In this document: positions 24,194 through 64,000 of the stretch, piece after piece | Layout: every line of letters starts with the position of its first letter | Position numbering within the stretch: the stretch's first letter is position 1 | NCBI GenBank assembly: GCA_964016885.1 | Contig: CAXHJY010000125.1 | Location: 1,556-65,555, forward strand | Origin: Eledone cirrhosa | Lineage: Eukaryota | Direction: 5' to 3' | Length of the DNA: 64,000 nt | Program-made: the position numbers and the translations under genes | The notes under the pieces: generated by a model | The model's input: the letters and a program-made list of their open reading frames with translations, nothing else | What the model was told of the DNA's origin: nothing | The model's database searches: none

Positions 24194-24314
24194 ATCTTGT
24201 AACATCCCATATGATTCAGGTTAAATTATATGTAACATTTGTGGTGTAATCTACCCTTGTAATTTTAGACACAGGATTTACTGTGTTTTCTTCTACACAT
24301 ATTAATATTATAAT

Positions 24315-24401
24315 TGTTTCTACTTTAGGCACAAGGCCAGCAATTACCCAGTACATTACTGGTACTTTATTTTATCGACCCCGTAAGGATGAAAGACAAA
24401 G
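24315..24401 (-). mobile_element. 5'-truncated tRNA-SINE, TSD TTATAAT
   Basis: Same family as 63716-63917; the empty site is visible at ~19608-19625. Confidence 0.85.
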
Positions 24402-24504
24402 TTATAATGCTCAGTATTTATACTTTGAGCTTGTTAATTGCAGGGTATCTATATGGGTTAATAACTCTATATTTTATTTGTATAAATATATATATATATA
24501 TATA

Positions 24505-27802: not shown

Positions 27803-29128
27803 TACATACATATATATGCACATATATTTTTTGTATTGCACCATAGAGCATGTGTGTTTACGTGTGTCATTGTGTTTATATGTGGGTAGAGATGTGTGCT
27901 GATGTAGGTATGTATGTTGACGTGTGTATGTTGTGGGTTCGTCTTAGGGAGAAGTGTTTAGACGGGGTCCGTATTTGTTAATGAAGTAAGATTCCTTGCT
28001 GATGCGCTGGGTGTGGGTGGCATTATCTTTAAATTTGTAGAGGGGAAAGATTCTGAAGTTGGGATGATTTTGGGCGGCGCAGGTATCAATGTGTTCACTC
28101 AGTGGTATTTTCCTGTATTCCCGTATTTTAATTTGGGATCTATGGACAGTCATGCGTTGGCGGAGGCTGTTTTTGGTCTGGCCTATGTATTGTTCTCGAC
28201 AACCTGAACAAGTTAATACATATATTAAATTTTCCGATGCACATGTGAAATTGTGTTTTACTATAAAACGTTGTCCATCTTTGAAATAGAATTCCGAACA
28301 CTCTATTAGGTTGATGCAAATGCCACAGTTGGGTCTATCGCATTTTTTTACTGTGGGTTTCGTTGTTGTGGTTGGCAGTACTTTGGCATGTGTTAAGATG
28401 TTTTTCATTGACTTGGATTGTCTTTTGCTCTTTATGATATCGTGTGTTCGTAGAATTTGGTTCATTCTATGGTCCTTTTTCAATACAGGGATGTTCTGGA
28501 GGATGGTGTCAAAGGCCTCGTTGTTGAGGGGGTTGTGTGTGGAGATGTATGGAAGAGCTTTTAGTTTTGGTTGATTTACTTTAGGGTGTCTAAGGTCCTG
28601 GGTACTGAGTTTTAGGGCACGTTGGATTCCATTGTCAATTAGTGATGCAGGGTAGTCCCTGCCTATGAGTGTGTCCTTTAGTTCTTGTAGCCGTAAGTAG
28701 CAGATGTTTTTATTGGAGACTATAGTACAGATTCTCTTGGCTAAGTTGTAGGGAATATTAATTTTAACGTGTCTAGGGTGGCAAGAGTTGAAGGGGAGGT
28801 ATTGCTTGGAGTCTGTGGGCTTGTAGTATATGTCTGTTTCTATTTTTTTGTTATGGATCTTAATGAGGATGTCGAGGAAGGGGAGTTGTTGATGGCTGTA
28901 TTCCATCGTGAAGTTAATATTTGTGTTGAGCCCATTTATAAGGGTGTGAAATTCTTTAAGTTTTTCGATGTTTTCGTGCCAAAGGATGAAGCAGTCATCA
29001 AGATATCGCTTCCAGTTCCTTTCAATGTGTAAGTGGAGGGTGTTTCCAAATTTGTTTAGGACTTTAGTGTAGAGGGTGATTTCCAGGTATCCCATGACTA
29101 GGTTGGCATACGTAGGGGCTGTTTTCGT
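26778..29128 (-). mobile_element. 5'-truncated Neptune-type PLE with a (CA)n-rich 3' UTR
   Basis: [38 protein letters not shown]...YIGQT; TA on both flanks. Confidence 0.88.
27944..29128 (-). CDS. PLE RT C-half + GIY-YIG (open, 5'-truncated)
   Basis: Non-repetitive C-terminal ~394 aa of the 27944..31042 ORF. Confidence 0.88.
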
Positions 29129-31025
<1,897 letters not shown>

Positions 31026-31212
31026 GTAGATAAATCTTCCAAAATGTACGGTAGTGTCCAATCCGTATGAAGAACTCAATGTCATCCGAATATGATGAAA
31101 AAAATGTATTCAAAAAATTTTTTCGATGAAAAACACAGGAAAACAGAGTCAAGATAATTTAATAAGAATAATGAATAAAAATAAAGAAACAGTTCCTTAT
31201 ATTGAAAAATTC

Positions 31213-31346
31213 ATCATTTTACGATCGTTTCTAGGATATATATGTGTGTGTTGGTATGTATATCATATAGATCTATGTAAAATTTTTACAAACTATCAGA
31301 GGGAATATACATACCTACACATATATATGCTGTCTTCAGAAATAAT
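31213..31346 (-). ncRNA. Hammerhead with a ~100-nt extended stem II
   Basis: ATTATTT-CTGAAGA-CAG..long hairpin..CTA-GAAA-CGATCG-TA-AAATGAT. Confidence 0.7.
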
Positions 31347-31527
31347 TGTTTCTACTTTAGGCACAAGGCCAGCAATTACCCAGTGCATTACTGGTACTTT
31401 ATTTTATCGACCCCGTAAGGATGAAAGGCAAAGTCAACCTCGGCGGGATTTGAACTCAGATCGTAAAGGGATGTAACTATGCTGGAAAGCATGGCGTCCG
31501 ACCCTCTACTGATACAGCCAATCCACC
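31347..31527 (-). mobile_element. tRNA-SINE, 18-bp TSD overlapping the HHR 5' strand
   Basis: A/B boxes; TSD 31329-31346 / 31528-31545. Confidence 0.9.
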
Positions 31528-31545
31528 GCTGTCGTCAGAAATAAT

Positions 31546-31727
31546 TATTTCTACTTTAGGCACAAGGCCAGAAATTACCCAGTGCATTACTGGTACTTTA
31601 TTTTATCGACCCCGTAAGGATGAAAGGCAAAGTCAACCTCGGCGGGATTTGAACTCAGATCGTAAAGGGACATAACTATGCTGGAAAGCATGGCGTCCGA
31701 CTCTCTACCGATACTGCCAATCCACCA
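31546..31727 (-). mobile_element. tRNA-SINE, 15-bp TSD, inserted in the TSD of the previous copy
   Basis: TSD 31531-31545 / 31728-31742. Confidence 0.9.
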
Positions 31728-34007
31728 GTCGTCAGAAATAATGATATTTGTTTATTGAAAAAAAACCAACAAAGATTTAATATAATAGGTCTGTTTGGGA
31801 ACAGGTTTTGAATTGACCAATAGAAAGGTAGTAAGTGGTCAAGATGGTAGAATAGTAGTAATGGAACTTTAATTTAGGGGTAGAGGAAGGCAGATTTCAG
31901 TTTTGAATGGAAAGAGTATAATGAATGAAAAGATTATTTTGGGGATGAAAATAGGTCAAGTCGGTAAAAGGTACACGAAAATTTGAAGTTATAAAAGAAT
32001 AGTGCTAATGTAAATATCTAAGGAGAATAAAATTTTACGTTAAATGTGTTAGTGAAAAATATCAATCTTATTTAAAACATAAGGAATTTACATCTATAAA
32101 AAGAAAATAAATGAATTAAATTGATAGGTATATTTATATTGATAAATTTATATTAATTCATATAGATATGATAAATAAGAGTTAGATGTAATTGAAGAAT
32201 GCTGTTAAAAACGAAGGGAAAATAAAAAAAAAATTATTATTATTGGGGGGGGGGGGGTTAAATTTATTAGTGAGAAATAACAAATTTATATAGATTATAA
32301 GGAATATAGATTCATAACCTGAAATTAAAATAGTTTATGTGTATACTTATTGGTATAAATTTTAGGAAAAGATAGCTGTAAAAGGGAAATAAAATTATGC
32401 AGTTCATTAGTAGTAGAATATTAATTATAAGTTAACTAATTTTAAAAAAGTGTTATTATTATAATTTGTAAAGTGTATATTAATTAGGTTTATAATATTT
32501 AAAAGTTCTTCTCAATTTATGATTACATGATATAATTAATTCCTGTCGCTTATTTAATAGGATATCCTTAGATTTCATTATTTCAAAAAGTTCCTGGGAA
32601 CATAATCTACATTCATATCTATTATTTTGATAAGGGGTGGCCCTTTTGAGTACACTCCAGGTCAGGTTATAATCTATATTCCTTTTTCTATAATTATTAA
32701 TTATTTCAGCTAAGGATGTTGTATTAGCTAATGCGGCATTTTTAAAACTGTGTTTGTGGGTATTAAATCTTACTTTAAATTGGTTAGAAGTAGCTCCTAT
32801 ATATGAATAAGTTGAGTCCTTAGTGTTAATTTTACCTTTATATACTATGTTATTAATAAGGCAATTTCCTTTTAATGGGCAATTTGCTTTGTTTCTACAG
32901 TTACAACCTTTCGTGAATGCTGTATCAGAGGAGATAGTCTAATTAGGTGTGGAATTTTCACGACTTGTATGTGAATGAGATGGTGGTTTGCTGTGGTTTA
33001 TTTTAGTATTATGGTTAGTTTGATGTATTGGTGGTAGTATATTCATGGTTTTTTTACATTTATATGCATTATAGGCACTTATATTTTGTTGTATATTTTT
33101 GGTTGTTGAGTAGGAGAATTTAACCGTTGATCTATTTAAAATTTGATGGTATTTATGGTTTGGCGGGAAGTTTTTCTCTATTATAGTAAAAAAAATTTTT
33201 TAGGTATATTATCTTTAATTTGTAGATTAAATGGAGCATTATACCAAGTAACTCGTCTATTACGGTTTCGATGTTGTTTATTATTTTTATAGGATGTATC
33301 CTGATGTTTATTAAGAGAATTAGTACTAGTGATTTTATTACACATATTTTTAGTTAGATTCATTGATTTAGGTGTTTTAGCCTGTTTATTAGGAATTTTG
33401 TTAACATATATTGGAGTATTAGGAGGAATGGTTTTTTGAAAGTTACTATATTGTATATTAGAAGAGTTAGAGAAATTAAGTTTTATGTTGGTATTTTTGG
33501 GTATAGTGTGAGTGGCATTTAGGTGTGTATATTTCATTTGGTGTTTGTTGGTAATATTGGGTTGTATGTTTGTAGTGTTATTGGTACAAGTTATATATAC
33601 TAATTTGTTTTTGTGGCCGCTTCTAGCTAAAGCTTCGTTATAAAAGGTCGCATTTTTATCAAATACATCCTGGTTAGACGAAAGGTTAGAAATTCTGAGT
33701 GAGATATTATATGCTAGGTTTTTAAGGATAGATTTAGGGTGATTAGATTGTGAGTGTATGTAATGTAAGTTTTGGTTAGGTTTATGGTAAGGTTGGAAGA
33801 TACATCTTCTCTTTTCATGATATTCGGATTACATTGAGTTCTTCATACTGATTGGACACTTTCGTACATTTTGGTAGATTTATCTACATACTTTGCTCCT
33901 AATTTTATGAAGGTATTCATATTTTTGTATATATATATATATATAATTTTATAACTCACTCTATATATATAGTTGAGCTCTTTTTCTTGTCCATTATCCA
34001 TATCACA

Positions 34008-35779
34008 ATGGAAAAACAATACTTGGGAACTTCTTTAAATAATATACCAATACCTTCTAAGGATGAATTCTTACTTCTTATGATACAAAAAAACAACCAA
34101 TTCATCAAAAGGGTCAGATGGAGGGCCTACCACTTCGATAAAAAAACAAAATGTACTGATAAGAAATATTTATATGATTTCACTACATATAAAAACCCAC
34201 CACACAACTCCTTGCTTGAAAACTTCGAGAAAGACCTTTTTAACTTAATCAAACACCTCAAATTTAAGAAATATAAATCTAATTTTCAAAAGGATCTTGA
34301 TTCTACCCTATTGGATCTATAAAAATCTAACAAAATCCATGTCCACTCTGACAAAATTGGAAATCTGTATCACATGGATATTGATAATTACAATGAGTTC
34401 ATATATAAAGAACTCAGGAAAAATTATAAAAAAACAAACAATGCGGCACTTACCAACATCAACAACAAAACACACAACATAGTAAATAGACTTAATATTG
34501 AAGATAGAACTGAACATTTGGCACTGAAAAAACCACATTTTAACCTGAAAGATCACAAATCTAATTTTAACTCTAATCCTTCTATAAGGCTTATATGCCC
34601 TTCCAAATCTGACATTGGCATCATTAGTAAAAAAATGTTTGTAGAGTCATCCCACAATTAAGAAAACATGTTAATTTACCACTCTGGGAAAACACATCCC
34701 AGCTAATTAACTGGTTTACTAATATTAGAAATAAATCTTCTGCTTCATTTCTACAATTCTATATAGATGCTTATTATTCCTCTATATCACCTATACTCCT
34801 GAACAAAGCCTTGATATTTGCCAAAAATAGATCAAACTTAACTATGGATGAAATTAATATTATCACACATGTTAGACAAACACTACTGGAATTTCAGAAA
34901 GAATACTGGACCAGAAACACATATAGTAATCTATTCGACATTACTATGGGCTCTAGTGATTCTGCCCAAATTACCGATCTTGTGGGCATCTTTCTTCTAT
35001 TTAACATAAATGTTTCTTTTCCCCACCTTAAAGGTGGTTTATATCGTGACGACTGTCTTCTTCTTTCCAATAACCTTAGCCTATCAGAAATTGAAAAAAA
35101 TAAAAAAACTTATTAGAACTTTCCTCAAAGACTATTATAGTCTCGATATTACATTTGAAAACACTAGTAAAGTAGTTAATTTCCTTGATATAACATTAGA
35201 CTTATCTACGGATATCTACCAACCTTACCATAAACCTAACCAAAACTTACATTACATACACTCACAATCTAATCACCCTAAATCTATCCTTAAAAACCTG
35301 TGAAAATTCCACACCTAATTTGACTATCTCCTCTGATACAGCATTCACGAAAGGTTGTAACTGTAGAAACAAAAGAAAATTGCCCATTAAAAGGAAATTG
35401 CCTTATTAATAACATAGTATATAAATGTAAAATTAACACTAAGGACTCAACTTATTCATATATAGGAGCTACTTCTAACCAATTTAAAGTAAGATTTAAT
35501 ACCCACAAACACAGTTTTAAAAATGCCGCATTAGCTAAGACAACATCCTTAGCTGAAATAATTAATAATAGAAAAAGGAATATAGATTATAACCTGACCT
35601 GGAGTGTGCTCAAAAGGGCCACCCCTTATCAAAATAATAGATATGAATGTAGATTATGTTCTCAGGAACTTTTTGAAATAATGAAATCTAAGGATATCCT
35701 ATTAAATAAGCGACAGGATTTAATTATATCATGTAATCATAAATTGAGAAGAACTTTTAAATATTATAAACCTAATTAA
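34008..35779 (+). pseudogene. PLE RT-GIY-YIG with stops, frameshifts and a ~750-bp internal deletion at 35299/35300
   Basis: SLNNIP, KRVRWRAYHF, LKDHK, MGSSDSAQ, YRDD, SNHP; the missing segment equals 32962-33715 of the minus arm. Confidence 0.85.
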
Positions 35780-36529
35780 TATACACTTTACAAATTATAA
35801 TAATAACACTTTTTTTAAATTAGTTAACCTATAATTAATATTCTACTACTAATGAATTGCATAATTTTATTTCCCTTTTACAGCTATCTTTTCCTAAAAT
35901 TTATACCAATAAGTATACGTATAAACTATTTTAATTTCAGGTTATGAATCTATATTCCTTATAATCTATATAAATTTGTTATTTCTCACTAATAAATTTA
36001 CCCCACCCCCCTAAATTATTATTATTATTATATTTTTAATTTTCCCTTCGTTTTTAACAGCATTCTTCAATTACATCTAATTCTTATTTATCATATCTAT
36101 ATGAATTAATATAAATTTATCAATATAAATATACCTATCAATTTAATTCATTTATTTTCTTTTTATAGATGTAAATTCCTTATGTTTTAAATAAGATTGA
36201 TATTTTTCACTAACACATTTAACGTAAAATTTTATTCTCCTTAGATATTTACATTAGCACTATTCTTTTATAACTTCAAATTTTCGTGTACCTTTTACCG
36301 ACTTGACCTATTTTCATCCCCAAAATAATCTTTTCATTCATAATACTCTTTCCATTCAAAACTGAAATCTGCCTTCTTCTACCCCTAAATTAAAGTTCCA
36401 TTACTACTATTCTACCATCTTGACCACTTACTACCTTTCTATTGGTCAATTCAAAACCTGTTCCCAAACAGACCTATTATATTAAATCTTTGTTGGTTTT
36501 TTTTCAATAAACAAATATCATTATTTCTG

Positions 36530-36707
36530 GATTGGCAGTATCGGTAGAGGGTCGGACGCTATGCTTTCCAGCATAGTTACGTCCCTTTACGATCTGAGTT
36601 CAAATCCCGCCGAGGTTGACTTTGCCTTTCATCCTTACGGGGTCGATAAAATAAAGTACCAGTAATGCACTGGGTAATTTGCTGGCCTTGTGCCTAACGT
36701 AGAAACA
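36530..36707 (+). mobile_element. tRNA-SINE, TSD ATTATTTCTG
   Basis: B box GAGTTCAAATCCC; flanking duplications. Confidence 0.9.
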
Positions 36708-36720
36708 ATTATTTCTGAAG

Positions 36721-36894
36721 ATTGGCAGTATCGGTAGAGGGTCGGACGCCATGCTTTCCAGCATAGTTACGTCCCTTTACAATCTGAGTTCAAATCCCGC
36801 CGAGGTTGACTGCCTTTCATCCTTACGGGGTCGATAAAATAAAGTACCAGTAATGCACTGGGTAATTGGTGGCCTTGTGCCTAAAGTAGAAACA
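36721..36894 (+). mobile_element. tRNA-SINE, TSD ATTATTTCTGAAG
   Basis: As above. Confidence 0.9.
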
Positions 36895-37030
36895 ATTATT
36901 TCTGAAGACAGCATATATATATATGTAGGTATGTATATTCCCTCTCATAGTTTGTAAAATTTTTACATAGATCTATATGATATACATACCAACACACACA
37001 TATATATCCTAGAAACGATCGTAAAATGAT
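36895..37030 (+). ncRNA. Hammerhead with extended stem II (PLE C + arm)
   Basis: CTGAAGA 36902-36908, GAAA 37012-37015, ACGATCGT palindrome, GTA site. Confidence 0.7.
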
Positions 37031-37111
37031 GAATTTTTTAATATAAGGAACTGTTTCTTTGTTTTTATTCATTATTTTTATTAATTTATATATATGTATA
37101 TATATATATAA

Positions 37112-37181: not shown

Positions 37182-38175
37182 GGTACGTATACTTTCTCGT
37201 ACATATATTTGCTTGTATATGTTATTGGTGTATATATTATATATACTGGTACATGTGCATTTGGTTATGTGTATACGTGAGTTTTGAGTCTGTGTGAGTA
37301 TGCGAATTTGTACGTATGTAGGGGGTGTGTATACCTGTACTTGGTTGACGTACGTCCGCGAACATATGTGTATTTACATGTGTGTGTGTGTGCGCACGTT
37401 ACATACGTATTTATGTGTGTATATTTATATACGTTTATTTAATTATGTATACACGCACTCACACACATGTATATATATATATATATGTCTTTATTTATTT
37501 TTATGTGGATTTGGTCTATACGTTCGTATGTGCGCGGTACAGGCGTTGCGTGGGTTCTGTATGTGCGTGTGTGTGTGTGTTTGTTATTGTTGTATACATG
37601 CTTGTATTTGCATACCCATGTGGGAGTGTTTTGGCGTATGCTTGTGTATGTACGTATATGGATGTGTGTATGTATATATTTAATTTCAATTACCTCTGTA
37701 TTTTATTTACTTTATTCTTAACTCTGAAGCCGACAATCCTTCGGTTTCCAAATAGAATTGTAGTCTACGACTTCAGCTATACCATTTACGTGGTTTTGTC
37801 TTTGCGTGTAATTGTTCTCATTGCTCCACATAATGACGTACTATCTTCGCTTTTTCCGTTCATTACCAGACAACGTCTCCACCTAATAGAATATTAGTCT
37901 ACGACTTCATTTATACCATAAACGTGGTTTTGTCTTCGCGTGAAATTGTTTTCACTGCACCAAATAATGACGTATTATCTTCGTTTTTTTCCGCTCTTTG
38001 CCAGGGAATGTTTCCACAAACCAAAGTATCGTCTTCCTGTCTTGCTTCGGTTGCAACGTTTTTTGAAATATTTACTTCTGCTTCCACAGATTGACTTTTT
38101 TTTAGTTTTAGAAGATCCTGTTAAGGGTGAAAGCAGCGATTCTTTGCTTAAACTTTAATCTGTTATTTTAATAAA
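37182..38175 (+). mobile_element. Probable PLE 3'-UTR fragment with a ~134-bp tandem duplication and a degenerate HHR (38104-38154)
   Basis: TA-flanked; AGTTT-TAGAAGA-TCCT..GGGT-GAAA-GCA..TGC-TT-AAACT (core mutated). Confidence 0.4.
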
Positions 38176-38190
38176 TATATATATATATAC

Positions 38191-38249
<59 letters not shown>

Positions 38250-38437
38250 TATATATATAAATATATAGATATAGATAGGTAAATATACACGGGTGTGTAT
38301 GATTGTGTATAGAAGATTAAATTAATAAGAGGAATTCCAACTTTGTCTGATTTACTCGTTTTATTTACAATCCTTTAAAATATATAATGGTATTATAATG
38401 AAATAGTATGATACAATATTAAATTCTAAGTGTTAAT

Positions 38438-38476
38438 TGAACAAGTACTTTCATGCTTTCGCAATCTTCAGGTTCA
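38438..38476 (-). ncRNA. Minimal hammerhead
   Basis: Reverse complement of 38534-38572. Confidence 0.8.
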
Positions 38477-38533
38477 TAATATGTGGTGACAGTCGAGTTT
38501 GCAATTTTCAAATTCGACTGTCACCACATATTA

Positions 38534-38572
38534 TGAACCTGAAGATTGCGAAAGCATGAAAGTACTTGTTCA
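38534..38572 (+). ncRNA. Minimal hammerhead
   Basis: TGAAC-CTGAAGA-TTGC(GAAA)GCAT-GAAA-GTAC-TT-GTTCA. Confidence 0.8.
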
Positions 38573-38689
38573 ATTAACGCTTAGAATTTAATATTCTATC
38601 ATACTATTTCATTATAATACCATTATATATTTTAAAGGATTGTAAATAAAACGAGTAAATCAGACAAAGTTGGAATTCCTCTTATTAAT

Positions 38690-40295
<1,606 letters not shown>

Positions 40296-44231: not shown

Positions 44232-44486
44232 TATATATATATATATATTCATATATATATATATATATATTCATATATTGTTATATTTGGGGAGGGTCAT
44301 ATTTGCGTAATATTGCCAGAATTAATAACAGAACACACTCACTGTTTGGTTGGTTTTCGCTTCTCGCTGTCTTTTATATATATATATCTGCGATCTAACT
44401 TACTCGGTCCTCAATGTTGCCATTGACTGACCGGCGGTCAAAAATAATACAGATACAATATAGACAAACACATATATATATAGTTT

Positions 44487-44529
44487 ACATAAATCTTTCG
44501 TTGCACATCTGCAACATCGTCAGTGGTGT
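44487..44529 (-). ncRNA. Hammerhead-like motif (mirror of 49021-49063)
   Basis: Reverse-complement copy. Confidence 0.55.
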
Positions 44530-44799
44530 TATATTCATTGTTCCTCCTGTTGTGTTGTATGTCTACGCCATTTTTTTTGTTCAGTCTGTCTATATATTTA
44601 TTTATTTATTTATTTGCTTGTTTGTTTATCTTATTTTATTTTGTCTTCTTTGCGCATGCGTTTGCGTGTGTGTATAGTGTTATGTGTGATGTGTGACTAG
44701 TGTGTATAGTGTTGTGTCTGCTGGGTGACTAGTGTGTGTTTATGTGCTTGTGTATGTATTTATTTATCTTATTTTATTTAATTTAATTTACTTATTTAT

Positions 44800-46710
44800 T
44801 TATACTTCTCTTAGGTCAGTGTTGTTTGTTTGGGTGTTGTTGTTGTTCCACTCATTCTTTCTGTTTAGCTTTGGTCTTCTAATTTCTATTTCACTGGCCT
44901 CTCTGATTTGCCTATCTGCTGGGTCATTCCTATGTTTAGATATTATTCTAATTTCTATGTTGTCTATGTTACCGTCATGATGTTGTCTAGCATGTTCGTA
45001 TAGTACTGACCCGTTTTTTCGTCCTTTTAGTTCCCCCCAGTGTTGGTCTATCCTTTCACCTATGCTACGAGCTGTCTCACCTATGTATGTTGTTGTCGTG
45101 TTTCTGCAAGTACCCTCTGTACATCTTATGCTATAGACTACGTTTCTAGTTTTACAGTTTATCCGGGGGTTCACCTTACATATGATACATTTCCTATTGG
45201 TACAGTGGGTTTTCTTAAAAGGGTAGGTTTTGCTGATCAGGGATTTTATGGTGGTTCCTGGCTTTTCTACCACCTTTATTTTTAAGTGGGTCTTTCTCAG
45301 GGCCTTTCTACACTGGTTAGCTAATTTCCCTCCAGGGGTGGCGTCCACAAACATGACACTCTGATATCTCTGGTTGTCGTACCATGATGTGGCCTTCCCT
45401 ATCTTATGTCTAGCCCTATCTAAGCTATTCCATGATTTGCTCCTGTATAGTGGGCAAATTCCTTTCATGTCCAGTTCTATGAGGGTCTTATACTTTTCCA
45501 TGGCTCCTTCGTATACTCTGACTCTGTCTCTTTGGTTGTAGCCAGAGAACTGCATGCGGTTGATGAAGTGTTGGATGTGTCCTTCCATTTCTGTTGGGTC
45601 GCACATGCTGGACACATTCTTCATCACTCGTACCAAATCTGCGATCAGAATATTAAACTTAGCACTACTGGACATTGCTGAGTTTTTGAGTATCAGGTAT
45701 TTGGAGGCCATGGGTTTAGCATAGTGTGAGTGGAGAATTTGGGCTCTCTCGTCTATAGTGTTAATCCAGAGTTCTGTGTCTAATACAGGTAGTCTATTGT
45801 TAGGGTGTTTGGAAGGGAAGTCTATAGTTACAGTTATACTCTGGTGTATGGAATTAGCTATCTGCTGGATGCTTTCCATCGTGCTACGTTCTAAATCAAA
45901 CTTGTTAGTGCTCTCTAGTGGGGGTGTTCTTATAACTATATTGATATCGTCTACATAACGAGAGTACATGATGAGGTCTATGGAGCTTTCATTAAGGAGA
46001 TCTTTAAGTCTCCTTTCCCACCATACCATGAAAAGGTTGGCAACATCGCCAGCTATGCTGACGCCGATGGCTGCTCCCTCATTTTGGGTGTAGATTTTCT
46101 CATTGAACTTAAATATGTGGCCCTTTAGGGTAGTTTTGATACTAGCCCCTATTGCATGTGCGACCATTTTTCTTACCTGATCAGTGTTTTGGGGGGTCCG
46201 TATAGCTTTGGTCCACCCAATCCACCTTCCTATGGGAGTCTTTTTAGCCATTGAGGTTATGGTGGGGGGTCTACCTCTTATAGGTCTACTAGGGCAGAAA
46301 CATCTAAGGTCATGGCTGTCTAGGTAGTCAGTGTCGTAGGTAAGTCTAAGTAGGAGGCCCAGTTCGTCTGTGTCGACGTCGCAGAACTCCACCTCACTCT
46401 CAATGATCATCTCCACACATCTTTTCACAGCAAAATCAATGTTAATGGATGGGTACAGTGACACCACATCCATGCTGCCTATTATGCAGTTGGATAGGCT
46501 CCTGTTTTTGTTGCACTCACTGATTCCGCTGAGGAGGTCCTCTGTACTTTCACATACATCTGGGGACATCTTGATTATGGGGCGTATAACCATTGAGAGG
46601 AAGTAGGAGATCCTGTAGTTGCTAGCTATATTAGCTCCGCATACAGGTCTTGTTGGTGGTCCTATTGTCGGGTCGTCGACTGTCTTGTGGTCTTTGCGGA
46701 GCCCATACAA
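44800..46710 (-). CDS. PLE RT + GIY-YIG (5'-truncated; frame open to the palindrome centre)
   Basis: LRKDHK, MDVVSLYPSI, GAAIG, RYVDD, VVY...YIGET. Confidence 0.92.
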   Translation of the reverse strand: MYGLRKDHKTVDDPTIGPPTRPVCGANIASNYRISYFLSMVIRPIIKMSPDVCESTEDLLSGISECNKNRSLSNCIIGSMDVVSLYPSINIDFAVKRCVEMIIESEVEFCDVDTDELGLLLRLTYDTDYLDSHDLRCFCPSRPIRGRPPTITSMAKKTPIGRWIGWTKAIRTPQNTDQVRKMVAHAIGASIKTTLKGHIFKFNEKIYTQNEGAAIGVSIAGDVANLFMVWWERRLKDLLNESSIDLIMYSRYVDDINIVIRTPPLESTNKFDLERSTMESIQQIANSIHQSITVTIDFPSKHPNNRLPVLDTELWINTIDERAQILHSHYAKPMASKYLILKNSAMSSSAKFNILIADLVRVMKNVSSMCDPTEMEGHIQHFINRMQFSGYNQRDRVRVYEGAMEKYKTLIELDMKGICPLYRSKSWNSLDRARHKIGKATSWYDNQRYQSVMFVDATPGGKLANQCRKALRKTHLKIKVVEKPGTTIKSLISKTYPFKKTHCTNRKCIICKVNPRINCKTRNVVYSIRCTEGTCRNTTTTYIGETARSIGERIDQHWGELKGRKNGSVLYEHARQHHDGNIDNIEIRIISKHRNDPADRQIREASEIEIRRPKLNRKNEWNNNNTQTNNTDLREV

Positions 46711-46839
46711 GGGTGGTATGCCATTGTTAGACGCCTGGAAGTTGTTGGCAGTGCGTCTGCTTGGCTTTAGGATGACATCCTAAAGCCAAGCAGACGCACT
46801 GCCAACAACTTCCAGGCGTCTAACAATGGCATACCACCC

Positions 46840-48750
46840 TTGTATGGGCTCCGCAAAGACCACAAGACAGTCGACGACCCGACAATAGGACCACCAACAA
46901 GACCTGTATGCGGAGCTAATATAGCTAGCAACTACAGGATCTCCTACTTCCTCTCAATGGTTATACGCCCCATAATCAAGATGTCCCCAGATGTATGTGA
47001 AAGTACAGAGGACCTCCTCAGCGGAATCAGTGAGTGCAACAAAAACAGGAGCCTATCCAACTGCATAATAGGCAGCATGGATGTGGTGTCACTGTACCCA
47101 TCCATTAACATTGATTTTGCTGTGAAAAGATGTGTGGAGATGATCATTGAGAGTGAGGTGGAGTTCTGCGACGTCGACACAGACGAACTGGGCCTCCTAC
47201 TTAGACTTACCTACGACACTGACTACCTAGACAGCCATGACCTTAGATGTTTCTGCCCTAGTAGACCTATAAGAGGTAGACCCCCCACCATAACCTCAAT
47301 GGCTAAAAAGACTCCCATAGGAAGGTGGATTGGGTGGACCAAAGCTATACGGACCCCCCAAAACACTGATCAGGTAAGAAAAATGGTCGCACATGCAATA
47401 GGGGCTAGTATCAAAACTACCCTAAAGGGCCACATATTTAAGTTCAATGAGAAAATCTACACCCAAAATGAGGGAGCAGCCATCGGCGTCAGCATAGCTG
47501 GCGATGTTGCCAACCTTTTCATGGTATGGTGGGAAAGGAGACTTAAAGATCTCCTTAATGAAAGCTCCATAGACCTCATCATGTACTCTCGTTATGTAGA
47601 CGATATCAATATAGTTATAAGAACACCCCCACTAGAGAGCACTAACAAGTTTGATTTAGAACGTAGCACGATGGAAAGCATCCAGCAGATAGCTAATTCC
47701 ATACACCAGAGTATAACTGTAACTATAGACTTCCCTTCCAAACACCCTAACAATAGACTACCTGTATTAGACACAGAACTCTGGATTAACACTATAGACG
47801 AGAGAGCCCAAATTCTCCACTCACACTATGCTAAACCCATGGCCTCCAAATACCTGATACTCAAAAACTCAGCAATGTCCAGTAGTGCTAAGTTTAATAT
47901 TCTGATCGCAGATTTGGTACGAGTGATGAAGAATGTGTCCAGCATGTGCGACCCAACAGAAATGGAAGGACACATCCAACACTTCATCAACCGCATGCAG
48001 TTCTCTGGCTACAACCAAAGAGACAGAGTCAGAGTATACGAAGGAGCCATGGAAAAGTATAAGACCCTCATAGAACTGGACATGAAAGGAATTTGCCCAC
48101 TATACAGGAGCAAATCATGGAATAGCTTAGATAGGGCTAGACATAAGATAGGGAAGGCCACATCATGGTACGACAACCAGAGATATCAGAGTGTCATGTT
48201 TGTGGACGCCACCCCTGGAGGGAAATTAGCTAACCAGTGTAGAAAGGCCCTGAGAAAGACCCACTTAAAAATAAAGGTGGTAGAAAAGCCAGGAACCACC
48301 ATAAAATCCCTGATCAGCAAAACCTACCCTTTTAAGAAAACCCACTGTACCAATAGGAAATGTATCATATGTAAGGTGAACCCCCGGATAAACTGTAAAA
48401 CTAGAAACGTAGTCTATAGCATAAGATGTACAGAGGGTACTTGCAGAAACACGACAACAACATACATAGGTGAGACAGCTCGTAGCATAGGTGAAAGGAT
48501 AGACCAACACTGGGGGGAACTAAAAGGACGAAAAAACGGGTCAGTACTATACGAACATGCTAGACAACATCATGACGGTAACATAGACAACATAGAAATT
48601 AGAATAATATCTAAACATAGGAATGACCCAGCAGATAGGCAAATCAGAGAGGCCAGTGAAATAGAAATTAGAAGACCAAAGCTAAACAGAAAGAATGAGT
48701 GGAACAACAACAACACCCAAACAAACAACACTGACCTAAGAGAAGTATAA
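46840..48750 (+). CDS. PLE RT + GIY-YIG (identical mirror copy)
   Basis: Translation identical to 44800-46710. Confidence 0.92.
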   Translation: MYGLRKDHKTVDDPTIGPPTRPVCGANIASNYRISYFLSMVIRPIIKMSPDVCESTEDLLSGISECNKNRSLSNCIIGSMDVVSLYPSINIDFAVKRCVEMIIESEVEFCDVDTDELGLLLRLTYDTDYLDSHDLRCFCPSRPIRGRPPTITSMAKKTPIGRWIGWTKAIRTPQNTDQVRKMVAHAIGASIKTTLKGHIFKFNEKIYTQNEGAAIGVSIAGDVANLFMVWWERRLKDLLNESSIDLIMYSRYVDDINIVIRTPPLESTNKFDLERSTMESIQQIANSIHQSITVTIDFPSKHPNNRLPVLDTELWINTIDERAQILHSHYAKPMASKYLILKNSAMSSSAKFNILIADLVRVMKNVSSMCDPTEMEGHIQHFINRMQFSGYNQRDRVRVYEGAMEKYKTLIELDMKGICPLYRSKSWNSLDRARHKIGKATSWYDNQRYQSVMFVDATPGGKLANQCRKALRKTHLKIKVVEKPGTTIKSLISKTYPFKKTHCTNRKCIICKVNPRINCKTRNVVYSIRCTEGTCRNTTTTYIGETARSIGERIDQHWGELKGRKNGSVLYEHARQHHDGNIDNIEIRIISKHRNDPADRQIREASEIEIRRPKLNRKNEWNNNNTQTNNTDLREV

Positions 48751-49020
48751 ATAAATAAGTAAATTAAATTAAATAAAATAAGATAAATAAATACATACAC
48801 AAGCACATAAACACACACTAGTCACCCAGCAGACACAACACTATACACACTAGTCACACATCACACATAACACTATACACACACGCAAACGCATGCGCAA
48901 AGAAGACAAAATAAAATAAGATAAACAAACAAGCAAATAAATAAATAAATAAATATATAGACAGACTGAACAAAAAAAATGGCGTAGACATACAACACAA
49001 CAGGAGGAACAATGAATATA

Positions 49021-49063
49021 ACACCACTGACGATGTTGCAGATGTGCAACGAAAGATTTATGT
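49021..49063 (+). ncRNA. Hammerhead-like motif, extra nt after A9, weak stem I
   Basis: CTGACGA-T-GTTGCA(GATG)TGCAAC-GAAA-GATT-TA; same position as the HHR of PLE B. Confidence 0.55.
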
Positions 49064-49330
49064 AAACTATATATATATGTGTTTGTCTATATTGTATCTG
49101 TATTATTTTTGACCGCCGGTCAGTCAATGGCAACATTGAGGACCGAGTAAGTTAGATCGCAGATATATATATATAAAAGACAGCGAGAAGCGAAAACCAA
49201 CCAAACAGTGAGTGTGTTCTGTTATTAATTCTGGCAATATTACGCAAATATGACCCTCCCCAAATATAACAATATCTGTTTCGACACACGATTTCATATA
49301 AAAAACCTCGCAAAACTAATTCATCGCCGC

Positions 49331-59613: not shown

Positions 59614-59670
59614 GTTTTGATTGCCCTGATGAGTCCTTAATAGGACGAAACATTGTCGGCTAATAAAAAC
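59614..59670 (+). ncRNA. Minimal type I hammerhead, predicted cleavage after C59657
   Basis: GCC-CTGATGA-GTCCT(TAAT)AGGAC-GAAA-CATTG-TC-GGC with extended stem I. Confidence 0.9.
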
Positions 59671-63715: not shown

Positions 63716-63917
63716 GGCGGTGGATTGGCAGTATCGGTAGAGGGTCGGACGCCATGTTTTCAAGCATAGTTACGTCCCTTTATGATCTGAGTTCAAATCC
63801 CGCCGAGGTTGACTTTGCCTTTCATCCTTACGGGGTCGATAAAATAAAGTACCAGTAATGCACTGGATAATTTAATGCACTGGATAATTGCTGGGCCTTG
63901 TGCCTAAAGTAGAAACA
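63716..63917 (+). mobile_element. Full-length tRNA-derived SINE, TSD ATTATTG
   Basis: A box TGGCAGTATCGG, B box GAGTTCAAATCCC; the empty site is in the 5' pLTR at ~58871. Confidence 0.93.
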
Positions 63918-64000
63918 ATTATTGTATTATATTATATGATTGATATTTCCCCATTTATTATGTAACCCAGTATGAATCATGTTGTACATATTGATTATGG

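Follow-up and report, generated by a model that had tools for sequence, protein, structure and literature searches.

Site-specific non-long-terminal-repeat elements, such as R2 and those of the Tx1 clade, insert repeatedly at a single site of a multicopy repeat. Alu elements have reportedly formed tandems by inserting into a target that an earlier insertion had regenerated. For short interspersed nuclear elements (SINEs) with partner long interspersed nuclear elements (LINEs) of the RTE, CR1 and L2 types, pairing of the nicked lower strand with the tail repeat of the SINE RNA is proposed in the accessible part of Nishiyama and Ohshima 2018 (PMC6007223). Penelope-like elements (PLEs) carry minimal hammerhead ribozymes in their pseudo-long terminal repeats (pLTRs), and the G10.1-C11.1 pair is conserved in them according to the available sections of Cervera and de la Pena 2014 (PMC4209133); the available text of PMC8557442 describes the role of the hammerhead in endonuclease-containing (EN+) PLEs as unclear. 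We analyzed a 64,000-nucleotide stretch of the Eledone cirrhosa genome (GenBank assembly GCA_964016885.1, contig CAXHJY010000125.1, positions 1,556 to 65,555 of the forward strand; here called the window, to which all coordinates refer). It holds a two-armed PLE with two tandem SINEs in each arm, all at the edge of a hammerhead-like motif. We think it likely that an abundant tRNA-type SINE inserted here four times independently, at one favored copy of the motif (C/T)|ATTAT, and the insertions are predicted to unfold the ribozyme. Among the titles and abstract openings searched, none reported PLE pLTRs as a hotspot for SINEs; the search covered neither Repbase nor most subscription papers, nor the supplements to PMC8557442 and PMC4209133.

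Four SINE copies in a two-armed Penelope element

The two arms of the element, the SINEs and their target-site duplications are as follows.

31026 to 33802, minus strand: PLE left arm, an inverted, 5'-truncated copy of a Hydra-type PLE, with reverse transcriptase (RT) thumb, linker, GIY-YIG, 3' untranslated region (UTR) and long pLTR end; the arm ends on its outer side in (TA)n
33800 to 37089, plus strand: PLE right arm, near full-length and decayed, with part of the 5' pLTR, a broken RT-endonuclease (EN) frame, 3' UTR and short pLTR end; the outer side again ends in (TA)n
31347 to 31528, minus strand: SINE L2, left arm, the first insertion
31546 to 31727, minus strand: SINE L1, left arm, the second, younger insertion
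31529 to 31545, minus strand: middle duplication of the left arm, 17-18 nt
31728 to 31742, minus strand: upstream duplication of the left arm, 15 nt, sharing the A>C variant of the middle duplicate
36530 to 36707, plus strand: SINE R1, right arm, A-box-like sequence at 36533 and B box at 36598
36722 to 36894, plus strand: SINE R2, right arm, A-box-like sequence at 36723 and B box at 36788
36520 to 36529, plus strand: upstream duplication of the right arm, the regenerated target C|ATTATTTCTG
36708 to 36721, plus strand: middle duplication of the right arm, 12-14 nt

As the original prediction had it, one SINE of ~185 nt is present in four copies at a single site, C|ATTATTTCTG, two per arm and in the PLE sense. 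The duplication lengths read from the sequence were 17-18 nt for L2, 15 nt for L1, 10 nt for R1 and 12-14 nt for R2 (the last range being due to microhomology), close to the ~18, 15, 10 and 13 given earlier, and all four 5' junctions are different. No derived variant is common to the four copies, which differ from one another at 7-9 positions and from the family majority at 3-4 each; the sole gap that they share in the alignment is an end-trimming artifact. Pairing of the SINEs as orthologs between the arms, which had been named as the finding that would count against separate events, is ruled out by the differing junctions and the lack of common variants.

The independence of the insertions extends beyond the window. 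We fetched 90 of the 184 filled places found genome-wide, 81 of which had PLE flank upstream. The site-proximal junctions of these 81 loci took 71 distinct forms. The commonest was seen 9 times and is the one favored by microhomology with the SINE head; it is spread over several PLE subfamilies, and shared SINE variants are not in excess (0.18 versus 0.12). No SINE-carrying PLE lineage was found among the 81 filled loci with PLE flank.

Translation of the PLE revealed an RT followed by a CxCx5C linker, a GIY-YIG-like domain, CxxC and CxH, with no CCHH. The Pfam match to GIY-YIG (E 0.018) is weaker than the curated cutoff. The decayed copy has RWR and DKI at the positions of the Hydra-clade motifs RWK and DKT, and both the (TA)n target and the inverted 5'-truncated arm of Hydra-clade PLEs are present. 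About 750 bases of the left arm are missing from the right arm, and outside the SINEs the arms differ by 27 substitutions in 1,215 aligned bases. Judged by the match of its domain order and motifs to the description of the Hydra clade in the available text of PMC8557442, the element is classed as a Hydra-type PLE. In common with that clade, as far as it is described there, it has the C-terminal GIY-YIG, the CxCx5C linker, the endonuclease CxxC and CxH, the RW(R) motif, the (TA)n target, the inverted 5'-truncated arm and the extension at one end.

Two fixed outer ends, both in (TA)n, were seen in two-armed insertions: the short pLTR end and one ~110 nt further on (window 31026 versus 37089; likewise at L103/L104, L109/L110, L164, L165 and L174). 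The 3' part of a second PLE family, with a YLDD RT and a GIY-YIG with CxxC, lies at 27944-29130 (minus strand) and is cut by the same long (TA)n tract that hosts the two-armed element.

Target rule, stacking and occupancy

The SINE is a dispersed, high-copy family with a fixed 3' end and 5' truncations (61/97 units keep the head). Its exact 28-nt 3' end has 56,017 matches genome-wide, and its duplications vary, matching the empty site over 1-22 nt. The RNA polymerase III (Pol III) B box, GTTCAAATCC, is found in all four window copies, and the A-box-like 12-mer departs once from the consensus. ARAGORN predicted no tRNA within the window. The family appears to resemble the tRNA-derived SINEs of octopus. 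The SINE is not a site-specific retroelement, since only 184 of the 56,017 ends (0.3%) are at the PLE site.

The generic target was read from 90 loci picked for holding a SINE end, with 140 tails. ATTAT directly followed the tail in 120/140, and C or T stood at -1 in 50 of the 54 primary insertions with a readable duplication. The genome-wide target of the SINE is (C/T)|ATTAT, and the PLE site C|ATTATTTCTG is therefore a consensus target; the 5' strand of the hammerhead-like stem I in the PLE happens to be such a site. T was enriched upstream of generic sites at -12 (0.53 versus 0.30) and -9 (0.52 versus 0.35) and depleted at -13 (73 sites versus 1,293 background sites). Two features recall SINEs mobilized by RTE, CR1 and L2 elements with a 3' microsatellite tail matching the start of the target, as the accessible part of Nishiyama and Ohshima 2018 (PMC6007223) describes them: the first letters of the duplication are the tail repeat (ATT), and a weak preference for T lies about one helical turn upstream (-12, -9). 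Unlike the 1-2 nt of 3' overlap given there for animals, the core here is 5 nt long (ATTAT), and the T stretch of the RTE-type signature, about 10 nt upstream, is not clearly seen at -10. Two further SINE copies are located at unrelated ATTAT sites in the window, at 63723-63923 (plus strand) and 24310-24402 (minus strand).

These data suggest how the SINE may be inserted. A LINE enzyme that nicks at (C/T)|ATTAT likely pastes the SINE in by target-primed reverse transcription, in which the AATAAT end of the nicked strand would pair with the AUUAUU tail of the SINE RNA. Re-insertion into the upstream duplicate, which rebuilds the target, gives the tandem stacks.

A single SINE is present at 69 of the 81 filled loci, two at 10 and four at 2. 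The order of stacking could be read at five steps (one in L071, three in L080 and one in L288), where the upstream junction copies the letters of the older junction and not those of the empty site. In the left arm of the window both upstream duplicates read CTGAC, whereas the empty site reads CTGAA; because it shares the A>C variant with the middle duplicate, the upstream duplicate must have been copied from it. New copies mostly enter the upstream duplicate. Tandems form because this duplicate regenerates the target, keeping the original upstream flank with C at -1; the downstream duplicate is left with A at -1. Stacking is generic for the SINE family (15/140 units elsewhere versus 16/97 at the PLE site, p 0.24), and the rate of a second hit (12/81, 15%) is close to that of a first (8/56, 14%). 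Double filling of both arms has an expectation of ~4.5e-4 per arm pair, and the window locus falls at the far end of an ordinary distribution. As in reported tandem Alu insertions, the nick site is restored by the duplication and further copies are added there; unlike them, ~11% of units here are stacked genome-wide, stacks reach four copies and their order is readable from the copied junction variants.

Stacks of three or four SINEs were noted at L080, L287, L045 and L135/L136, and the ~11% refers to SINE units directly followed by another copy (15/140). At L251, a SINE is inserted three times at one position of a tandem repeat unit; these are either repeated hits or copies of one.

Occupancy of the PLE site was compared with that of other ATTATT sites, including one in the same PLE family that is also represented in the window.

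32576 to 32597, plus strand: control site, where the 9-mer of the PLE site (CATTATTTC) recurs antisense to the GIY-YIG region; without a SINE in the window

By exact counts, 184 of the 3,502 genome-wide copies of the site 22-mer were filled (5.3%), compared with 2,398 of 172,312 YATTATTTC sites (1.4%). Within the PLE family, 6/503 were filled at the control that has this 9-mer on the opposite strand and 4/440 at a third site 261 nt upstream. The PLE site exceeded these two controls pooled (10/943, 1.1%) with an odds ratio (OR) of 5.2 (p 2.5e-10), and singly with ORs of 4.6 and 6.0. Of the 87 copies on contig C1 with the control site, 7 carried a SINE at the hammerhead site and 3 at the control. 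A sample of 100 copies was also taken, the first of 3,192 found through an anchor in the 3' half of the motif; 6 of 98 were filled, as were the other two, L063 and L064. The 100 comprised 48 intact empty sites, 8 filled sites (14%, confidence interval 6-26%), 25 copies truncated at or near the site and 19 without it. The site denominator includes truncated copies, so its occupancy is biased down.

The hammerhead-like motif and the effect of insertion

The motif next to the SINEs is laid out as follows.

36895 to 37032, plus strand: hammerhead-like motif of the right arm, with the stem I 5' strand at 36895-36901 and CTGAAGA at 36902-36908
37012 to 37023, plus strand: GAAACGATCGTA in the 3' half of that motif, containing the palindromic stem III, with the cut predicted after 37023 and the stem I 3' strand from 37024
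36960 to 36964, plus strand: T5 in the stem II domain (~100 nt) of the right arm
31211 to 31346, minus strand: hammerhead-like motif of the left arm, with the core at 31339-31333 and 31231-31220 and a T4 run within 31277-31287

Inspection of the motif revealed a type I layout, with the core CUGANGA, GAAA and UH and with stems I and III. No core column had a variant at a frequency of at least 4% among 149 copies, which is partly due to copy selection. Stem I measures 9 bp in empty copies and shows a G.U to A-U change in 7 of the 149; subfamily variants of the motif appear to keep or improve pairing. The base of stem II has C opposite A and not G10.1-C11.1, and the stem II domain is ~100 nt long, compared with a stem II of 4-8 bp in type I PLE hammerheads. 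Rfam gave no hammerhead match for 36895-37032 among the matches listed. RNA of the empty site folds with a z of -3.0. The putative motif resembles the PLE minimal hammerheads, as the available part of Cervera and de la Pena 2014 (PMC4209133) presents them, in its type I layout within the pLTR, its intact CUGANGA and GAAA and its small palindromic stem III of the dimer type. It differs from them in its 9-bp stem I, very long stem II and lack of the G10.1-C11.1 pair, and in the last two respects it is also non-canonical beside the hammerheads of Hydra-clade PLEs described in the accessible text of PMC8557442. Compact hammerheads of other families lie at 39482-39553 (minus strand; Rfam HH9, 38.9 bits) and 59620-59664 (plus strand; type I, 31.7 bits), both below gathering.

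It had been proposed that the insertions keep a 7-bp stem I and the core, leaving the motif undestroyed. The letters are indeed kept downstream; stem I, however, is cut from 9 bp to 7 bp, its duplex falls from -6.5 to -2.3 kcal/mol, and it is predicted to be unpaired. The pair probability of stem I was 0.64-0.88 in the empty state and at most 0.01 in the filled state of both window arms, because the SINE tail is predicted to pair with the stem I strand and the first core bases (C3-U4). Over the copies folded, the middle of stem I was paired at a probability above 0.5 in 47/52 empty and 0/74 filled copies. This set leaves out 19 further filled entries without an intact 3' core, as well as L027, whose 3' core is mutated.

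The Pol III promoter of the SINE had also been noted to lie directly upstream of a self-cleaving motif; that it drives a self-cleaving RNA is not supported by these predictions. A run of at least four T is the usual stop for metazoan Pol III. Such a run is present in stem II ahead of GAAA in 46/74 filled copies, including both window arms. Read-through from the SINE would mostly stop there, and filled pLTRs are likely disabled passengers. The modeling thus predicts that the insertions unfold the hammerhead-like RNA and do not form a working SINE-ribozyme unit.

Strength of the preference and alternative explanations

Several observations weigh against favored, independent insertion with loss of the ribozyme fold. 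In a fuzzy count over 120 loci, 9/91 copies of the site were filled; the figures for three other C|ATTATT sites were 3/44, 2/36 and 0/25, a contrast of ~2x (9/91 versus 5/105) that is not significant (p 0.18). A weight matrix built from 73 generic sites predicted only ~2x for the PLE site and ranked control C higher. One stacking step in L287 does not fit upstream re-targeting, the remaining steps being uninformative. No LINE 3' end that might identify the partner was recognized among 24 tail-only matches in the loci examined. Foreign upstream flank was found at 4 filled loci (4/89 versus an expected share of 8/62, p 0.07). The T4 run is missing in 28/74 filled copies. Finally, folding was a monomeric minimum-energy prediction, and PLE ribozymes are thought to act as dimers (PMC4209133, available part).

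The preference for the site is real but moderate, probably 2-5x. The strong hotspot of the original prediction is therefore retained only in part: the excess over controls is ~4-5x in exact counts, but ~2x and not significant in the fuzzy sample. The exact counts (5.3% versus 1.1-1.4%) nevertheless speak against an occupancy no higher than at other ATTATT sites. Sequence context does not explain the excess, because the matrix predicts ~2x and places control C above the PLE site, and it was rejected as the full cause. A three-feature rule (-13, -12, -10) that ranks the site 3.6x was not relied on, as it was picked post hoc and -10 is not significant. G-rich microhomology downstream was likewise discarded as a driver; G is not enriched 3' of generic sites (30 source loci were preselected for +4 to +7). 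The residual excess may instead reflect local accessibility of this pLTR stretch rather than recognition of the ribozyme. The stretch has a T7 tract, AATAAA and a long AT-rich palindrome and is possibly a PLE promoter or 3'-end signal.

It is unlikely, in our judgment, that the site is no more than a consensus target within a family of 3,500 copies, with an excess made up of pattern and subfamily-age bias. The lack of significance in the fuzzy sample and the ~1.8x yielded by C at -1 alone are consistent with this explanation, and at the expectation given above one doubly filled arm pair among some hundreds would be unremarkable. Against it stand the exact counts over two same-family C|ATTATT controls; the same-copy check points in the same direction (7/87 versus 3/87), and the truncated copies in the denominator lower the occupancy of the site.

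Insertion at an exposed PLE RNA start is a second, similarly doubtful alternative. Non-SINE 5' junctions of the PLE fall at -1 to +5 of the stem I site (window 36520/36895) in 22/98 copies by one alignment method (19 loci, head-to-head pairs counted once) and in 16/98 by a second. The next 80 nt hold 16 such junctions, giving a p of 5e-10 for the pile-up, in which some junctions run straight into (TA)n and others form head-to-head pairs with the site at their center. It was noted at L091-L120 and L157-L216 (the first copies on contig C1); the anchor spanned the predicted cut site, so PLE 5' ends there are invisible. Truncation clusters at -216, -760 and -1097 were discounted, as they probably reflect breaks in the alignment from one subfamily to another. 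The pile-up may correspond to the 5' end of an RNA or to a point where cDNA folds back; its cause may or may not be shared with the SINE excess.

According to this alternative, the PLE RNA has its 5' end at the site, which would be a Pol II initiator or else a point at the foot of stem I where the RNA is processed or an exonuclease stops; cDNA synthesis runs off there and open chromatin draws in the SINE. AATAAA lies 14 nt upstream of TC|ATT, which is presumably initiator-like. One cause would thus account for both the pile-up and the SINE excess, and the several junctions that join (TA)n directly likely date from integration. Transcription of Penelope and Chlamys-3 starts inside the pLTR in the available parts of PMC2377424 and PMC8557442. 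The start of D. virilis Penelope, however, is 46 bp upstream of a 75-bp intron ending in helix I and thus not at the helix edge (PMC2377424 and PMC4209133, in the accessible text). The junctions give no clear sign of a cap-derived G (3/8 at position 0), cDNA fold-back or microhomology to (TA)n could yield the pile-up without any link to the SINE, and the evidence consists of DNA junctions. Put most specifically, and just as doubtfully, the 5' foot of the hammerhead, and not the cut site ~130 nt downstream, would be the true 5' end of the PLE template RNA; the SINE would prefer this exposed point, and its tail would sequester the core, selectively silencing ribozyme and start site in ~1/10 of pLTRs.

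It is less probable still that the hammerhead DNA, a long AT-rich palindrome, extrudes as a cruciform or three-way junction and so lays the neighboring motif open to the LINE endonuclease. The stable fold of the empty-site RNA (z -3.0), the position of the site beside the palindrome and the hairpin kept at the four filled loci without native upstream flank are consistent with it. Second insertions, however, lie ~190 bp from the hairpin and occur at a rate (12/81) no lower than first ones (8/56), a weak argument given that stacking is generic. Elsewhere in the window we noted a perfect 2.5-kb inverted repeat with a 1-nt center (44272-49278) and a palindromic pair of short arms (38150-38690, centered near 38500).

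Hitch-hiking of the SINE in PLE pLTRs, which had been offered as the other option, whether by copying of SINE-bearing pLTRs by the PLE machinery or as a SINE-hammerhead chimera mobile under its own Pol III promoter, is very improbable: one junction recurs 9 times in 81 loci, the B boxes are intact and the letters of the motif are kept, but the recurrent junction is the microhomology-favored one and occurs in different PLE subfamilies rather than as a clade, stem I is predicted to be lost, T runs precede the 3' core, and none of 9 loci without an upstream anchor shows a SINE-(TA)n join without duplication where the junction is visible (L328 undecided). A template jump of the PLE RT onto SINE RNA was also rejected, as no such duplication-less join was seen. 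The locus resembles animal retrozymes, as far as the available text of bioRxiv 10.64898/2026.07.22.740005 describes them, in having a hammerhead beside a non-autonomous element; unlike them, it shows no amplified SINE-hammerhead unit with a shared junction (71 junctions in 81 loci).

Favored, independent insertion makes this locus a case of a transposon nested in a transposon at a preferred motif, with a readable order of stacking, and not a new system. The data can serve for dating and help to define the target rule of a SINE of more than 56,000 copies. The coincidence of the SINE excess and the pile-up of PLE 5' ends at the foot of the hammerhead offers a testable, sequence-level handle on where the PLE template starts.

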